Sequence record: LC788706.1
Direction: 5' to 3' (one strand)
DNA length: 64,000 bases
From: Escherichia coli phage KS_S14
The notes below the pieces were generated by a model. The model did not search any database. It was not told where the DNA came from and was given only the letters and a program-made list of their open reading frames with translations. Of the stretch, positions 8,171-17,270 are shown in pieces (position 1 is the first letter of the stretch; every line of letters starts with the position of its first letter). The translations under genes were made by a program, and so were the position numbers.

Positions 8171-11016
8171 AGAAAATACTAGATAGTGCTAGAAACTACT
8201 TAAAAAATAATAGCAGAATAAAAACTGCTAGTCTAATTTCCCTAGAATTACCTGGCTCTACTGGTACTAGTACTGCTTTTATTTATTTAACTGATTATTT
8301 TAGAGATGTACTATATAATGGTATTTTGTACCAGGCCGGTAAGGTTAAGTCCATTAGCACACATAAACAAAATAGAGATTTATCTATTGGCAGTCTATCT
8401 TTTACTATTACGGGTACAGCGCAGGATGAAGTACTGAAATTAGTGCAGAATGGTGTGTCCTTTTTAGATAGAATAGTAACAATCCACCAAGCAATTATTA
8501 CAGAGGATGGTTCTATTTTACCTGTAGACCCAGACACAAATGGCCCTTTATTATACTTTAGAGGGAGAATTACCGGTGGGGGTATTAAGGACAACATTAG
8601 TACTTCTGGGGTTGGAACCTCCACAATTACTTGGAATTGTTCTAACCAATTCTATGACTTTGATAGGGTTAACGGTAGATTTACTGATGATGCTTCTCAT
8701 AGAGGGCTTGAGGTTGTAGCAGGGCAATTAGTTCCATCTAACGGGGCTAAAAGACTTGAGTACCAAGAAGATTATGGGTTCTTTCATGCTAATAAAAGTA
8801 TCTCTATTTTAGCAAAATATCAGGTACAGGAAGAGAGATACAAGCTAAAGTCTAAGAAAAAGCTATTTGGCCTATCTAGAAGCTATAGTCTTAAAAAGTA
8901 TTATGAGACTGTTACTAAAGAAGTAGATATAGATTTTAACCTTGCTGCTAAGTATATACCAGTAGTTTATGGTGTACAGAAAATACCAGGAATACCTATT
9001 TTTGCGGATACGGAACTACACAATCCTAATATAGTTTATGTAGTATACGCCTTTGCTGAAGGGGAGATAGACGGTTTTCTTGACTTTTCCTTCGGGGATA
9101 ACCCTATGATTTGTATGGACTCTAATGATAGCTCTGCTAGAACCTGTTTCGGTGTTAAAAAAGTAGCAGGAGACACCATGCAAAGAATAGCATCAGGAAT
9201 ATCTTCTAGTAGTCCTTCTGTGCATGGTCAGGAATATAAGTATAATGATGGTAATGGTGATATAAGGATTTGGACTTATCATGGAAAAGCTGATCAAACG
9301 GCTTCTGAAGTATTAGTAGACATAGCGAAAGAACGTGGGTTCTACCTTCAGAATATGAATGGCAATGGACCGGAGTACTGGGATGCTAGGTATAAACTAC
9401 TAGATACTGCATACGCAGTGGTGCGCTTCACTATTAATGAAAATAGGACTGAGATTCCTGAAGTTAGTGCTGAAATTCAAGGTAAAAAAGTAAAAGTCTA
9501 TCATTCTGATGGTAGAGTAACTGCTAATAGTACTAGTTTAAATGGTATTTGGCAAACACTTGACTACTTAACCTCCGATAGATACGGTGCTAATATTACC
9601 ATTGATCAGTTCCCTCTTCAGCAATTAATACAGGAAGCAGCTATTTTAGATATTATAGATGAATCCTATCAGGTATCTTGGCAGCCATATTGGAGATACG
9701 TTGGGTGGACTGATCCACTAGCAGAAAATAGACAAATAGTACAAATGAATACTATTCTGGATACATCTGAATCAGTATTTAAAAATGTGCAAGGTTTATT
9801 AGAGTCCTACGGTGGGGCTATTAACAACTTATCTGGCCAGTACAGGATTACTGTAGAAAAATACTCTAATACTCCATTAGAGATTAATTTTCTAGATACT
9901 TACGGTGATTTGGAGCTATCAGATACTACTGGTAGAAATAAATTCAACTCAGTTCAAGCATCTATCGTAGATCCAGCCCTTAGCTGGAAAACTAATTCCA
10001 TTACATTCTATAACTCCAAGTATAAGGAACAGGACAAGAACCTAGACAAAAAATTACAATTATCTTTTGCAAATATAACTAACTACTATACTGCTAGAAG
10101 TTTTGCAGACAGAGAACTTAAGAAATCTAGGTATTCTAGAACCCTCTCATTTTCTTTACCATATCAATTCATTGGTATTGAGCCTAATGATGCTATTGCA
10201 TTTACATACGACCGTTACGGATGGGATAAGAAGTACTTTTTAGTAGATGAAGTCGAAAACTCTAGGGAAGGAAAGATAAATGTTACTCTACAGGAGTATG
10301 GAAAAGATGTATTCATCAACTCTGATCAAGTAGATAATAGTGGTAATGATATACCAGATATTAGTAACAACGTTCTTCCTCCTAGAGATTTTAAGTATAC
10401 TCCTACACCCGGTGGCTTAGTTGGTTCTATAGGTAAAAATGGTGAGTTATCCTGGCTTCCGAGTCTAACCAATAATGTAGTTTATTACTCTATTGTGCAC
10501 TCAGGCCATGCCGAACCTTACATAGTACAACAGTTAGAGACCAATCCTAACGAACGTATGATCCAAGAAATAATTGGGGAACCAGCAGGTCTGGCTATAT
10601 TTGAGATAAGAGCAGTAGATATTAATGGTAGAAGAAGTTCCCCGGTGACTCTGTCTATAGAACTTAACTCTGCTAAAAACCTTAGTGTAGTATCTAATTT
10701 TAGGGTAACTAATACTGCTTCTGGAGATGTAACTGAGTTTGTTGGCCCAGATGTAAAACTAGCTTGGGATAGAATACCTGAAGAAGATATAATAGAGAGT
10801 ATATTTTATACACTTGAAATACACGATTCGCAAAATAGGATGTTAAGAAGTGTACGTATTGAAAATCAGTATACTTATGACTATTTATTAACATATAATA
10901 AGGCAGACTTTGCTCTCCAGAACAGCGGTGCTCTAGGTATAAATAGAAAATTGTATTTTCGTATTAGGGCTGAAGGGGATGATGGAGAACAGTCTGTGGA
11001 GTGGGCATCCATTTAA
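8167..11016 (+). CDS. baseplate hub protein (T5 pb3-like)
   Basis: 949-aa ORF following Dit homologue, start overlaps upstream stop; size and synteny. Confidence 0.6.
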   Translation: MKKILDSARNYLKNNSRIKTASLISLELPGSTGTSTAFIYLTDYFRDVLYNGILYQAGKVKSISTHKQNRDLSIGSLSFTITGTAQDEVLKLVQNGVSFLDRIVTIHQAIITEDGSILPVDPDTNGPLLYFRGRITGGGIKDNISTSGVGTSTITWNCSNQFYDFDRVNGRFTDDASHRGLEVVAGQLVPSNGAKRLEYQEDYGFFHANKSISILAKYQVQEERYKLKSKKKLFGLSRSYSLKKYYETVTKEVDIDFNLAAKYIPVVYGVQKIPGIPIFADTELHNPNIVYVVYAFAEGEIDGFLDFSFGDNPMICMDSNDSSARTCFGVKKVAGDTMQRIASGISSSSPSVHGQEYKYNDGNGDIRIWTYHGKADQTASEVLVDIAKERGFYLQNMNGNGPEYWDARYKLLDTAYAVVRFTINENRTEIPEVSAEIQGKKVKVYHSDGRVTANSTSLNGIWQTLDYLTSDRYGANITIDQFPLQQLIQEAAILDIIDESYQVSWQPYWRYVGWTDPLAENRQIVQMNTILDTSESVFKNVQGLLESYGGAINNLSGQYRITVEKYSNTPLEINFLDTYGDLELSDTTGRNKFNSVQASIVDPALSWKTNSITFYNSKYKEQDKNLDKKLQLSFANITNYYTARSFADRELKKSRYSRTLSFSLPYQFIGIEPNDAIAFTYDRYGWDKKYFLVDEVENSREGKINVTLQEYGKDVFINSDQVDNSGNDIPDISNNVLPPRDFKYTPTPGGLVGSIGKNGELSWLPSLTNNVVYYSIVHSGHAEPYIVQQLETNPNERMIQEIIGEPAGLAIFEIRAVDINGRRSSPVTLSIELNSAKNLSVVSNFRVTNTASGDVTEFVGPDVKLAWDRIPEEDIIESIFYTLEIHDSQNRMLRSVRIENQYTYDYLLTYNKADFALQNSGALGINRKLYFRIRAEGDDGEQSVEWASI

Positions 11017-13079: not shown

Positions 13080-13502
13080 ATGAGTACTGAAAATAGAGTT
13101 ATAGACTTAGTAATAGATGAAAAAGTACCTTATGGTCTAATGATGCAATTCTTAGATGTTGATGATAGTACTTATCCACCTACAAATACCCCTGTTAACT
13201 TAACAGGGTATTCCCTAAGGGGTACTATAAAGGCGGGGCTTGATGAGAACGCGGAAACTTTGGCATCTTTTACTACTAAAATTATTGATGCTGCTCAAGG
13301 TGCTATAGCTATAAGTTTACCTGTAGAGGCGGTAGATAATATTGGTGAAAAAGCTACCAAAGAGAGAGATAAGTATAACCCTCGCCAACGTTTTGCAGGA
13401 TACTATGATATAATTATGACACGAGATGTCATAGGATCAGCTATTAGCTCTTTTCGTATAATGGAGGGTAAAGTATTTATCAGTGATGGGGTAACTAGAT
13501 AA
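13080..13502 (+). CDS. tail collar protein (T5 p132-like)
   Basis: 140-aa ORF between central-fibre and side-fibre genes; size and synteny. Confidence 0.5.
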
Positions 13503-15175
13503 TGGCAATAACTACTAAGATTATTGTACAACAAATATTAAATATTGATGATACTAAAGCTACTGCTAGTAAATTTCCTAGATACACAGTAACTCTTGGA
13601 AATTCTATTAGCTCTATTACTGCTAATGAGTTAGTATCTTCTATAGAGGCTGCTGCTAAATCTGCTGCGGCTGCAAAAGATTCTGAAATAGCTGCTAAAA
13701 CCTCAGAACTTAATGCTAAGAACTCTGAACAGAAAGCTGCTATTTCTGCTACTGAAGCAGGAAAACAAGCTACTAATGCTGCTAATAGTGCTAATACTGC
13801 TAAAACTGAAGCCGATCGTTCAAAAACTGAGGCTGATAGATCAGAAGCTGCTGCTAATTCTACCCCCGACATTCAACCTCTTCCAGATGTATGGATACCG
13901 TTTAACGATTCTCTAGATATGATCACCGGCTTTGCGCCAGGCTATAAAAAAATAACAGTCGGTGATGAGGAAATAACACTGCCCAGTGACAAGATTGTTA
14001 GCTTTACACGTGCATCAACTGCGACATATATTAATAAATCAGGTGTATTAACTGTTGCGGGGATTGATGAACCTAGATTTGAAAAGGATGGTTTGCTCAT
14101 TGAGGGGCAAAGAACTAACTATCATCTTAACTCACTTACGCCATCTAAGTGGGGAGCTACAACAAGTGTAACTATAACAGAAAGTGGTGTTGATGAGTTT
14201 GGATTTACTTATGGGCGGTTTCAAATAAAGGACGAAAAAATTGGGACAAATACGGCAATGAATATCGCTGCGATTTCAGGAGGAAGAGGTGTCGATGTTA
14301 CCGGAACTGAAAAGTATGTTACAACATCATGTCGTGTAAAAAGCGATAGTGCTAATATACAATGTCGTATAAGATTTGAAAGATATGACGGATCCGCATA
14401 TTTTTATCTAGCAGATGCATATCTTAATATAACAGATATGTCCATTAGAAAAACGGGAGTAGGGGCTGCAAGAATAACCGCCCGAGCGGAGAAAGAATCT
14501 AATGGATGGATTTATTTCGAGGTTACATATCAATCTGAAGCTATTGATAATATGGTTGGCTCTCAGATCCAAATTGCTCCACCTGTTTCACCTGGCACTT
14601 ATTCTGGTGGAGAGTACTTACAGGTAGCTACCCCTCAAGTTGAAGGCGGGGCGTGCGCTTCATCGTTTATTATTACAGAAGCGACTCCAGTAACACGGGC
14701 AAGCGATATGGTCACATTACCAATAAAAAACAACCTTTACAATTTGCCGTTTACAGTACTTGTGGAAGCTCATAAAAACTGGAGTATAACGCCAAATGCA
14801 GCGCCACGTGTTTTTGATACCAGCGGTCATCAAACCGGAGCGGCTATTATTCTTGCTTTCGGATCTGCCGAAGGCGATAATGATGGTTTCCCTTATTGCG
14901 ATATAGGTAAATCAAACAGAAGGGTTTACGAGAATGCAAAACTAAAAAAGATGATCATGGGAATGAGAGTAAAGAGTGATTACAATACTTGCTGTGTAAG
15001 TAATGCCAGAATATCAAGCGAAACAAAAACGGAATGGAGATACATACAATCAACGGCTACTATAAGGATTGGAGGACAAACAACTACGGGCGGACGTCAT
15101 CTTTTCGGGCACGTTAGAAACTTTAGAATCTGGCATAAGGAACTAACTGATAGACAAATGAAGGAGTATGTATGA
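13502..15175 (+). CDS. L-shaped side tail fibre proximal subunit (LtfA-like) with C-terminal LamG/ConA-like lectin domain
   Basis: 557 aa; N-terminal Ala/Lys/Ser-rich coiled region; C-terminus ends RHLFGHVRNFRIWHKELTDRQMKEY, resembling the terminal strand of LamG-type jelly-roll domains. Confidence 0.6.
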   Translation: MAITTKIIVQQILNIDDTKATASKFPRYTVTLGNSISSITANELVSSIEAAAKSAAAAKDSEIAAKTSELNAKNSEQKAAISATEAGKQATNAANSANTAKTEADRSKTEADRSEAAANSTPDIQPLPDVWIPFNDSLDMITGFAPGYKKITVGDEEITLPSDKIVSFTRASTATYINKSGVLTVAGIDEPRFEKDGLLIEGQRTNYHLNSLTPSKWGATTSVTITESGVDEFGFTYGRFQIKDEKIGTNTAMNIAAISGGRGVDVTGTEKYVTTSCRVKSDSANIQCRIRFERYDGSAYFYLADAYLNITDMSIRKTGVGAARITARAEKESNGWIYFEVTYQSEAIDNMVGSQIQIAPPVSPGTYSGGEYLQVATPQVEGGACASSFIITEATPVTRASDMVTLPIKNNLYNLPFTVLVEAHKNWSITPNAAPRVFDTSGHQTGAAIILAFGSAEGDNDGFPYCDIGKSNRRVYENAKLKKMIMGMRVKSDYNTCCVSNARISSETKTEWRYIQSTATIRIGGQTTTGGRHLFGHVRNFRIWHKELTDRQMKEYV

Positions 15176-15450
15176 GAGATATAATCCTAAAATTCACGGA
15201 TAAATCAGCATATAAAGATTTTCTCTTAAAAATAGAGTGGGATACTAATGAAAATTTGCAAAACCAAATAATGCTTGACGAAATTGGATATACTTATACT
15301 GAAATCTCTCCGCTAGGTGATGAGGAACCTAGATGCATCCGTAATGAAGGGTATTATATTAATGTAAGGATTCTTGATGAATCCTTTACTTACGAATCCT
15401 TCGAGCCTTTTATAGTTCAGCTAGAACAGCCTCTTAGAGTATGGGCATAA
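15172..15450 (+). CDS. hypothetical small protein in tail fibre locus
   Basis: 92-aa ORF translationally coupled (ATGA overlap) to the LtfA-like gene. Confidence 0.45.
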   Translation: MRDIILKFTDKSAYKDFLLKIEWDTNENLQNQIMLDEIGYTYTEISPLGDEEPRCIRNEGYYINVRILDESFTYESFEPFIVQLEQPLRVWA

Positions 15451-15459
15451 GGTTTTATA

Positions 15460-17228
15460 ATGGTAACTAAAACAGTAATTCCTACGGATATTACAAAACT
15501 TAAAAATGAGTCACTTAATAAAAATAATAACCTGAGTGACTTAGCAGACCGTGCAGCAGCATGGCTAAATGTGCGTCCTATTGGATCTACCCCTCTTGCT
15601 GGAGATCCTGTTAGTGACTATGATGCCGCAACTAAGCGTTGGGTGGAGAACAAACTTAATACTGGCACAGTAGGACCCACAATGAATGGTGTTATGAACT
15701 ACGGGGTGGGGGATTTTCATCTTCGAGATAGCCGTGCGTATATTCAACCTTATGAGGTAGTTTCTGATGGGCAGCTTCTTAACAGGGCTGACTGGCCTGA
15801 ACTTTGGGCGTATGCACAAATGGTTGGAGCTATAGATGATTCAGTTTGGTTAGCAGATGTAGGACAACGTGGGAAATATTCTACGGGAGATGGTACCACT
15901 ACTTTCCGCGTCCCAGATCGTAATGGTGTGCAACTAAATTCAATCAAAGGGTTATTCGCTCGTGGTGACGGTGGGGGGATGCTGGTCAAGCTGGTTCAAT
16001 ATCAGAAGCTGCAGCACCCAATATTACTGGTAGTTTTCCTGGCGCTATTGCTGGTGCATATGAAGAAGCGCTTAATAGATATTCATCTAGATTTGGTCTT
16101 ATTGGGGCGATTGGTGGTGAAAACGGCTTAGGTGCCGCTCCTGGAGGTGCATCTAAATCATTCGCCGTAGTTAATCCTGATAACCAATACGGATTTAGTT
16201 TTGATGCAAACTTAGCGGACCCTGTTTATGGGCGTTATGGAATAAAAGGTACTATTATTCCAAACAGCTTTATAGGTGTCTGGGTAATCCGTGCTTCTGG
16301 TGGGTTCGTGGCTGCAAAGACTTCGTGGAGTGTTATTAGTGGTGATGCTGTCAAACCTAATACTGGTACTACTGTTTATGGCGGGAGTGTACTATCTGAG
16401 TATAAAGTAGGTACTAGTAGTGAGGCTGTAAGTACACTACGAGCTAAAGCTACTATTGGTGGCACCTACTCTACTGAACTACTAATAGACAATAAATCTA
16501 CCGGTAAATCGAATTCCGCCCAGCTTGTAGATAATGGGGATTTTGTAACGGATCGTTTTAAAGCTAGATTAGTTACTGGCATGGCGTGGTCTCAGACTGG
16601 CTGGGTACAAGGTACTCTTTCTCAGAACGAGGTCAATATAGGTAGTACATTTAACTTTAATAGTATATTGAGCGGTTCCCAGTCTTCTTCCGCAGGGTAT
16701 AAGACATCTGCACATTTTGGATTAATTCATAATGACTTAGGCTCATTTGCAGATTCTTGTTGGCAGGTAGCGGGAGATGATGATAATAAATTTGGTGTGC
16801 GTTTAAAAATTCAGCCGAATAATAATAGTATTTATTTTTATTCTTGGTGGCCAGGTGCTTCAGCAACCTATACTTTGCAATTAAATGCTGTATCTGATTC
16901 TCGCTTAAAGCATGATATTAAGGCTATAGACGCAACTAAGTCCATCGAGGTATTAAAAGGATTAGAATTCCAATCCTTTGTATATAATAACGATGAAAAA
17001 TCTCGTGTCCGACGTGGGGTTATTGCTCAGCAAGTAGAGACTATAGAACCACTTTATGTAAAAACTAGAAAATTTTATAATGATGACGGAATAGAGCAGG
17101 AGCAAAAGGAATTAGATACAACTCCAATGCTTCTTGACACTATGCATGTTGTGCAAGATCTTATTAAACGGATTGAAGATCTAGAGAAAGAGCTTGAGCA
17201 ATTAAAGGTACAATTAGTATCACAATAA
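15460..17228 (+). CDS. side tail fibre distal subunit (LtfB-like): tail-collar domain + C-terminal S74-type intramolecular chaperone; reading frame interrupted at a G6 run
   Basis: Frame 1 (15460-15977) encodes collar-like motif (SDGQLLNRADWPELWAYA...TTFRVPDRNG); frame 0 opens after TGA at 15966-68 and continues to 17228 with Gly/Ala-rich fibre sequence and C-terminal chaperone-like block (SDSRLKHDIKAIDATKSIEVLKGLEFQSF...). Junction is GGGGGG at 15973-15978. Confidence 0.55.
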
Positions 17229-17231
17229 AAG

Positions 17232-17270
17232 AAAACCCCAGTGGACAAAATCCACTGGGGTTTATTATTT
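17232..17270. terminator. bidirectional terminator between convergent tail-fibre and dut genes
   Basis: 10-bp stem CCCCAGTGGA/TCCACTGGGG, loop CAAAA, A/T runs on both sides. Confidence 0.75.

Follow-up and report, generated by a model that had tools for sequence, protein, structure and literature searches.

Lateral tail fibre of the T5-like Escherichia coli phage KS_S14: a proximal subunit with a lectin-like two-domain module and a translationally coupled 92-residue partner

The genome of Escherichia coli phage KS_S14 is of the Tequintavirus (T5-like) type, and the 64,000-nucleotide stretch analysed here (the window; record LC788706.1) contains its locus for the side or lateral tail fibre (LTF). 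We consider it moderately probable that a 557-aa protein encoded in this locus (13502-15175; plus strand, as are all features below unless stated otherwise) is the virion-anchored proximal subunit of a multi-gene T5-like LTF, furnished with a glycan-binding module, a small partner protein and a docked distal fibre. The protein, recognized from its open reading frame (ORF) and homologues, has the same sequence as 'hypothetical protein KSS14E_0910' of E. coli phage KS_S14 (100% identity). An earlier sequence-only reading had described the fibre locus as split over several genes, and indeed a collar gene, the proximal gene, a 92-aa ORF and a distal fibre gene follow one another. The locus is nearly identical in DNA sequence to those of vB_Eco_mar004NP2 (99.9%) and Salmonella phage PMBT29 (99.8%), and is 94.8% identical to that of IrisVonRoten (Bas32).

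The 92-aa ORF (15172-15450), assigned to phrog_1361 (E 2e-32), is coupled to the fibre gene as that reading had claimed: its ATG overlaps the TGA of the 557-aa gene by 4 nt (ATGA within GTATGA), and direct reading of the sequence reveals a Shine-Dalgarno motif, GAAGGAG (15160-15166), within the 3' end of the upstream gene. Both ORFs are real genes, because they have more than 2,700 (557-aa protein) and 312 (92-aa ORF) homologue clusters, and the latter also belongs to phrog_1361 and is under purifying selection. About 40 N-terminal residues of the proximal subunit are homologous to the LtfA part that threads into the LtfC collar of phage DT57C, and residues ~40-120 continue as a coiled-coil rod, which is 239 aa shorter here than in the closest relatives. 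In the arrangement that we favour, the C-terminal module itself would be the glycan-binding fibre tip, the 92-aa protein a dedicated partner of the conserved module framework, acting as an assembly factor or a small structural adaptor, and the 15-residue N-terminus of the distal fibre would dock onto a conserved platform, allowing very different distal tips to be plugged in. The role of the 92-aa protein is one that we infer from sequence comparisons.

Anchor, rod and C-terminal module of the proximal subunit

Residues 1-121 (13502-13864) comprise the collar-inserted N-terminus (about residues 1-40) and a trimeric coiled-coil rod with Ala/Ser/Thr/Lys heptads, as judged from their alignment with residues 1-121 of LtfA from phage DT57C (PDB 8hqz_d; phmmer E 2e-31), which bears out the fibre-like N-terminus noted earlier. 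In the DT57C structure obtained by cryo-electron microscopy, the first ~40 residues of LtfA donate strands to the sheets of LtfC, and the trimeric helix starts from T40 (PMC10713586), a residue kept in the 557-aa protein. The fibre gene thus combines two hallmarks of an anchored T5-like LTF subunit, namely, ~120 homologous N-terminal residues and a position directly 3' of ltfC. The ltfC (p132-type) gene (13080-13502), which overlaps the fibre start codon, encodes a 140-aa collar protein (Pfam PF23926, E 8e-15), and its counterpart in mar004NP2 is annotated as 'collar tail protein for L-shaped tail fibre attachment'. Side fibres are threaded onto this LtfC collar.

Beyond residue 121, no likeness to DT57C LtfA or T5 pb1 was found, save for low-complexity coiled-coil similarity. 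The 1396-position PHROG profile of pb1-type fibres (phrog_24369) matches, with its positions 2-122, residues 3-120 only, and the protein therefore is not collinear with the classical single-gene fibre, from which the sequence-only reading had rightly set it apart. The single-gene L-shaped fibre of T5 (pb1, 1396 aa) resembles the proximal protein in its N-terminal anchor region but is unrelated to it after residue ~120; its C-terminal intramolecular chaperone and that on the distal protein of the window belong to one family, and its functions are here spread over three genes. The autocleaved Peptidase_S74 chaperone, typical of pb1 and LtfA tips, has no match on the 557-aa protein and is found on the distal product instead.

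Whereas the proximal protein has 796 aa in mar004NP2, IrisVonRoten and PMBT29, that of the window is shortened to 557 aa by a 717-bp (239-aa) in-frame deletion in the rod repeats. The junction (13736-13750) is visible in BLASTN comparison with NC_048205 as two pieces that overlap by 15 nt, corresponding to imperfect direct repeats (14/15 nt; GCTGCTAWTTCTGCT), and the rod of the relative holds 21-nt tandem repeats. The short-rod allele is no one-off, because its 1674 nt recur, differing by 41 substitutions and free of indels, in an independent metagenome-run contig (L086), where the 92-aa ORF and an intact distal gene of 576 aa come next. Rod length therefore varies between alleles, which give proximal proteins of 557, 685 and 796 aa. 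Provided that the rod forms an uninterrupted coiled coil, the short-rod fibre would be ~35 nm shorter.

The C-terminal 436 residues form the module and are predicted by AlphaFold2 (AF2) to be all-beta, with high confidence (pLDDT 93.1, pTM 0.90). The module opens with a conserved entry segment (residues 122-198; 13865-14095), delimited by the conservation and invariant residues in the homologue alignment (A1) and modelled as beta-strands (pLDDT 82-97), which contains the motifs PLPDVWIPFNDSL..., RASTATYINKSGVL and the IDEPRFE..GLLIEGQRTN framework. It is followed by domain 1 (residues 199-400; 14096-14701), a beta-sandwich of the GTA head-spike-fibre type with a variable core. This domain matches NCBIfam NF048003 (GTA_spike_fiber) over profile positions 1-181 of 182 with 59 bits, well above the cut-off of 36 (E 9e-16), and is homologous to Rcc01080 of RcGTA (phmmer E 3e-9; domain-1 profile E 4e-40). 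Further solved chains matched by the domain-1 profile are a 'tail fiber gp17' (9occ; E 6e-18) and two proteins of the baseplate triplex, E217 gp45 and Pa193 gp46 (E about 3e-16).

Domain 2 (residues about 406-557; 14717-15172) adopts a LamG/pentraxin-like variant of the ConA fold. Its last strand, GHVRNFRIWHKELTDRQMKEYV, is the C-terminus on which the sequence-only reading had based its LamG/ConA-like assignment, and it reads as was claimed. The Pfam check suggested at that time gave a divided answer: PF13385 (Laminin_G_3) reaches only 18.7 bits on the 557-aa protein (residues 505-552) and 19.5 bits on the module (profile positions 103-149 only), short of the gathering score of 27.6, but is found in 27 of 48 homologues (best E 1.9e-11). 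A profile of the last 152 residues retrieves LamG-like and pentraxin chains from the PDB (4qvs, CRP, BoNT/D Hcn; E from 6e-4), in alignments that reach the terminal motif G-H-[IV]-R-N-F-R-I-W-H-x-x-L-T-D; the two-sheet beta-sandwich and the C-terminal motif G-x-[IL]-x-x-[FV]-R-[IV]-[WY]-x-x-x-L expected of a jelly roll are both present. The LamG call is right, because the 436 residues fold confidently into beta-sandwiches that include a LamG/pentraxin-like domain, in agreement with the homologues and the profile. The extent given earlier for the lectin domain (~380-557) does not hold: domain 2 starts near residue 406, and the C-terminal part comprises two different domains rather than one. Comparison of the domain-1 and domain-2 profiles with hhalign showed no relationship between them, and the two beta-sandwiches thus bear no detectable sign of duplication.

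Eleven module residues are invariant down to 24% identity, namely, R71, G76, E80, N85, Q258, E260, S267, T277, D281, N290 and W423 (module numbering; adding 121 gives the protein residue), a set which spans positions 14075-15133 or thereabouts. Most of this polar set lies in framework motifs common with the RcGTA head spike fibre (PRFE..GLLxEGxxTN and PQxExG..SSxIxT....TRAxD), and the residues could form a structural or a ligand/metal site. Invariant acidic and polar framework residues (E80, E260, D281, R71 and Q258) might also be expected of an enzyme with a ConA fold, either a glycoside hydrolase or a polysaccharide lyase, for the degradation of O-antigen or capsule. Such an activity appears very improbable, given that a GH16 ExDxxE-type motif is not visible in the sequence, no enzyme family is matched in Pfam or NCBIfam, and the invariant residues of the framework strands are also kept in the non-enzymatic RcGTA fibre.

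The module is present in more than 2,700 protein clusters and is C-terminal every time. It is carried by anchors of the lambda-Stf type (PF08400), the P2 type (PF12571/PF03406) and others, with modules 63-85% identical on the PF08400 and PF12571/PF03406 anchors, and also occurs in siphophages of ~50 kb and ~60 kb. These comparisons show what is, by prediction, a portable two-domain beta-sandwich unit. Identities computed by segment show that the variable cores of its two domains recombine independently. For instance, P0013 and P0030 share with the window a domain-1 core that is 96% identical, whereas their LamG cores are only 35% identical; conversely, in P0015, P0008 and P0017, the domain-1 core is about 50% and the LamG core 93-96% identical. 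Throughout, the framework (module residues 46-95, 256-300 and 401-436) stays conserved.

The 92-aa partner and the distal fibre gene

The gene neighbourhood of the module was compared in 85 loci found through the 92-aa protein and in 21 genome loci found through the module. Almost all readable loci have an ORF of the partner family, 92-104 aa long, directly 3' of the module gene, which it overlaps by 1 or 4 nt. The association persists where the module itself has diverged to 25-35% identity, as in Aeromonas, Buttiauxella, Leclercia, Atlantibacter and Corallincola (hidden Markov model E 1e-16 to 5e-4). In two loci (L095 and L107), the partner is the second rather than the first ORF downstream, and in both Endozoicomonas loci, no partner-family ORF follows the module gene. 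Overall, the module and its ~92-aa partner are encoded as a translationally coupled pair that is kept in about 100 loci from different phage types and bacterial orders.

The small gene is under purifying selection, with a median ratio of non-synonymous to synonymous substitutions (dN/dS) of about 0.3 that is equal in loci with and without a third gene. From this equal constraint it follows that its function is tied to the module, and the module can form the fibre end. Partner identity shows no relation to either core: L007 and L008 have cores of 21-26% identity and a partner of 73-74%, whereas L004 combines a LamG core of 92% identity with a partner of 46%. The partner sequence thus seems to follow lineage and framework rather than the variable cores, which fits binding to a conserved scaffold, although its correlation with the module counts for little because it is confounded by linkage and lineage.

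One reading of these data, to which we assign a real if minority chance, is that the 92-aa protein is a non-virion chaperone of the Tfa/gp38 kind that serves the upstream C-terminal module and has no part in connecting the distal fibre. The ORF occupies the classic position of Tfa-type genes, directly 3' of a fibre gene with which it is translationally coupled and co-inherited, it remains under purifying selection where the distal gene is absent, and its product is not among the 8 proteins detected by mass spectrometry in mar004NP2 virions, few as these are. However, searches of Pfam, NCBIfam and PHROG labels place the protein in none of the known tail fibre assembly families (lambda Tfa, T4 gp38, P2 G, Mu U), it does not change together with the variable cores, whereas chaperones specific to a receptor-binding domain (RBD) usually do, and ConA-like domains normally need no folding help.

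The third gene of the window (15460-17228), identified by its Peptidase_S74 domain and by comparison with an intact relative, encodes a distal fibre of the T-shaped type with a C-terminal intramolecular chaperone. Its product ends in Peptidase_S74 (E 1e-12) and gives a weak Collar match. The gene is split into ORFs of 223 and 306 aa by a frameshift at a G6 homopolymer (15973-15978), where, in the alignment with L001, mar004NP2 has G7; one added G restores the 589-aa ORF that is intact in mar004NP2. The frameshift is either a sequencing error or a genuine loss of the distal fibre. Broken fibre genes were also seen in relatives: the distal gene is in three pieces in OR896837, ltfC is in two in PMBT29, and in Salmonella phage VSe12 (L005/L006, the latter being the IMG/VR copy), the distal ORF is apparently truncated to 64 aa and begins with the same N-terminal motif.

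The N-terminus of the distal product, MVTKTVIPTDITKLK, is a conserved connector peptide. In Escherichia-type loci, 29 distinct distal proteins share a 15-residue N-terminus of the form M-[AVT]-T-x-T-x-I-P-x-D-I-[TK]-x-L-K. A third gene is present in 37 loci and encodes bodies of at least six unrelated types, ranging from 151 to 589 aa, every one of which starts with this motif. In 44 of the 85 loci, all in Escherichia prophages, there is no distal gene, and the gene next to the 92-aa ORF encodes a conserved 97-aa membrane protein. The distal gene is accordingly optional, and the module would be the fibre end where it is missing.

The predicted membrane protein (95-99 aa; MDI[ST]P.LHA.CAVAAQ...GLFTGNW) always ends the cassette in Escherichia prophages, with or without a third gene (L003, at 8190-8480; L011-L060; L089-L092). 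The L003 cassette is flanked by sodC upstream and by the cytolethal distending toxin genes cdtABC downstream. In four loci from Silvania, Leclercia and Atlantibacter (L094, L099, L103 and L107), the module and a partner of ~93-100 aa are followed by a different third family, of 243-358 aa and starting with MA.R.D[ST]...L, a possible second class of plug-in distal fibre.

Function of the module

Glycan binding by the module is suggested by its Rhodobacter homologue in RcGTA, a head spike fibre for which experiments show binding to capsular polysaccharide (PMC7296036, PMC10218006), by its terminal position in the 44 prophage loci and by its mosaic cores. Homology to the head spike fibre and the mosaicism likewise point to the polysaccharide binding and the host-range role proposed in the sequence-only reading.

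Several considerations weigh against this assignment and the architecture built on it. In the published view, the main O-antigen-specific RBDs are on the third, distal protein (PMC11990801), a placement which the sequence-only reading left unweighed. The module is 60-85% identical across phages of different hosts, which is unusual for an O-antigen-specific RBD and fits a structural role or a conserved ligand. In Pa193 and E217, the homologues of domain 1 belong to the baseplate wedge and are not known adhesins, and the Pfam LamG match of the 557-aa protein itself is below the gathering score. The predicted structure is a monomer, yet the protein is trimeric in its rod. As for the partner, it has no recognizable fold relative, it is missing from the short list of proteins detected in mar004NP2, and its correlation with lineage could reflect mere genetic linkage. 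Finally, docking of the distal N-terminus onto the module platform is a proposal based on sequence conservation.

Alternatively, the two-domain module might be only a structural joint, that is, a knee or adaptor that holds the distal fibre, with receptor recognition left entirely to the third protein. Apart from the conservation across hosts, such a role would agree with the homology that domain 1 shows to one domain of Pa193 gp46 and E217 gp45, triplex proteins of the baseplate wedge, the former of which docks a trimeric fibre, though via a different loop, with a structural match to a T4 gp35-like 'hinge connector' (rank 39, TMq 0.42), and with the literature placing O16 recognition on the distal Gp24 of IrisVonRoten (PMC11990801). 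We nevertheless think it unlikely, because in the 44 prophage loci and several distant loci without a distal gene, the fibre ends with the module, the independent exchange of the two variable cores is what one would expect of ligand-binding surfaces, and the RcGTA homologue binds capsule.

A bolder extension of the glycan-binding architecture, possible in our view but doubtful, is that the ~92-aa protein represents an undescribed class of fibre accessory proteins and, together with the module framework, forms a universal 'socket' for the 15-residue distal 'plug', common to T5-like, T1-like, Queuovirinae-size and lambdoid phages. If so, the connector could be used to retarget phage host range.

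Relation to known fibres and the surrounding locus

The closest described system is the three-gene locus Gp22-Gp23-Gp24 of IrisVonRoten (Bas32), which is orthologous to that of the window: identity reaches 94% over the last 486 residues of the proximal subunit, 92% for the small partner and 85% for the distal fibre, whereas the window differs by its short rod (557 versus 796 aa) and frameshifted distal gene. Humolli et al. (2025; PMC11990801) described a C-terminal 'galectin-like' domain of Gp22 and proposed it as an additional RBD; in their AlphaFold-Multimer model, a T-shaped Gp24, with a Gp12-like RBD1, a T5-like RBD2 and an intramolecular chaperone, is attached to the proximal Gp22, from which the galectin-like domain protrudes. 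A lectin-like tip is hence already in print for the 94%-identical orthologue, and because of that description the core of our finding has been published. The same study leaves the 92-aa gene undiscussed, its number, Gp23, being once used for the proximal fibre, and is silent on the division of the module into two domains, on its mosaicism and on the wider spread of the pair. Earlier, Michniewski et al. (2019) noted that the ltfB-like gene of mar004NP2 is preceded by two genes without orthologues, one of which was guessed to form a fibre with LtfB, and Maffei et al. (2021) described lateral fibres of one or several proteins whose distal subunits share only the far N-terminus. In the literature searched, we found no description of the deep conservation of the ~92-aa partner, of the two-gene form without a distal fibre or of the independent shuffling of cores; searches on Laminin_G_3 in phage tail fibres, KS_S14 and PDB 9OCC returned nothing useful.

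The branched fibres of DT57C and DT571/2 (Golomidova 2016; Ayala 2023) have the same LtfC collar and a homologous LtfA segment (residues 1-121), and resemble the fibre of the window in being composed of an anchored protein (LtfA) and a second protein attached through it (LtfB). However, LtfA has its own receptor-binding tip and a Peptidase_S74 chaperone, whereas the proximal protein of the window lacks S74 and ends in a lectin fold. LtfA also docks LtfB via a region of the phiEco32 gp14/gp15 type, whereas here the 92-aa gene lies between the two fibre genes and the distal N-terminal connector is different. Specifically, the defining features of the DT57C fibre are a docking region at LtfA residues 223-471 and a gp15-type 45-aa N-terminus of LtfB (the LtfB features being compared by description); the match of the proximal protein ends at residue 121, and the distal motif differs.

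Among more distant systems, GhsB (Rcc01080) of RcGTA is a domain-1 homologue which shares the PRFE...LLxEGxxTN and PQxExG..SSxIPT....TRAxD motifs but is a 325-aa monomer on the capsid vertex, devoid of a coiled-coil rod, a LamG domain or a known 92-aa partner. The lambda Stf-Tfa, T4 gp37-gp38 and P2 H-G pairs display the same gene order and translational coupling, with a fibre gene followed by a small gene, and many module homologues are mounted on the lambda Stf N-terminal anchor (PF08400). Nevertheless, the 92-aa protein has no sequence or fold in common with chaperones of the Tfa, gp38 and G types, and the tip is a lectin-fold module rather than a trimeric beta-helical structure. Pa193 gp46 and E217 gp45, in turn, belong to the baseplate wedge of myoviruses and are not fibre subunits.

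Upstream of ltfC are genes of the pb3 and pb4 types, including a 690-aa ORF which matches four PB4 Pfam domains (E down to 3e-198). At the other end, the fibre operon, which converges with the dUTPase gene, is closed by a bidirectional intrinsic terminator (17233-17263, not assigned to a strand) with a G+C-rich stem of 13-14 bp and T-rich tails on both strands. A minus-strand ORF at 13495-13872 (125 aa, rich in Ala, Leu and Ser) was rejected as an antisense gene, since it mirrors the GCT/GCA-rich (Ala-codon) heptad repeats of the rod. The fibre locus has matches of ~80% DNA identity in OR848352 ('Listeria phage LM 4-14-1') and MG065692 ('Campylobacter phage C13'), and an Escherichia-type cassette is present on a contig (L092) of a 'Collinsella' metagenome-assembled genome; the sequences with these Listeria, Campylobacter and Collinsella labels are probably mislabelled or contaminants.

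Overall, the observation is ordinary for the field: it refines the architecture sketched earlier for IrisVonRoten, adds prophages and further genera, and leaves current concepts unchanged. Whether T5-like and many other siphophages can cross the O-antigen layer depends on their lateral tail fibres, whose modular parts are therefore handles for engineering or predicting host range. In this context, the lectin-fold tip of the proximal subunit may be a second, putative receptor-binding site, and the existence of a standard interface for distal-fibre swaps is suggested by the conserved connector peptide and by the strict co-inheritance of the 92-aa partner.

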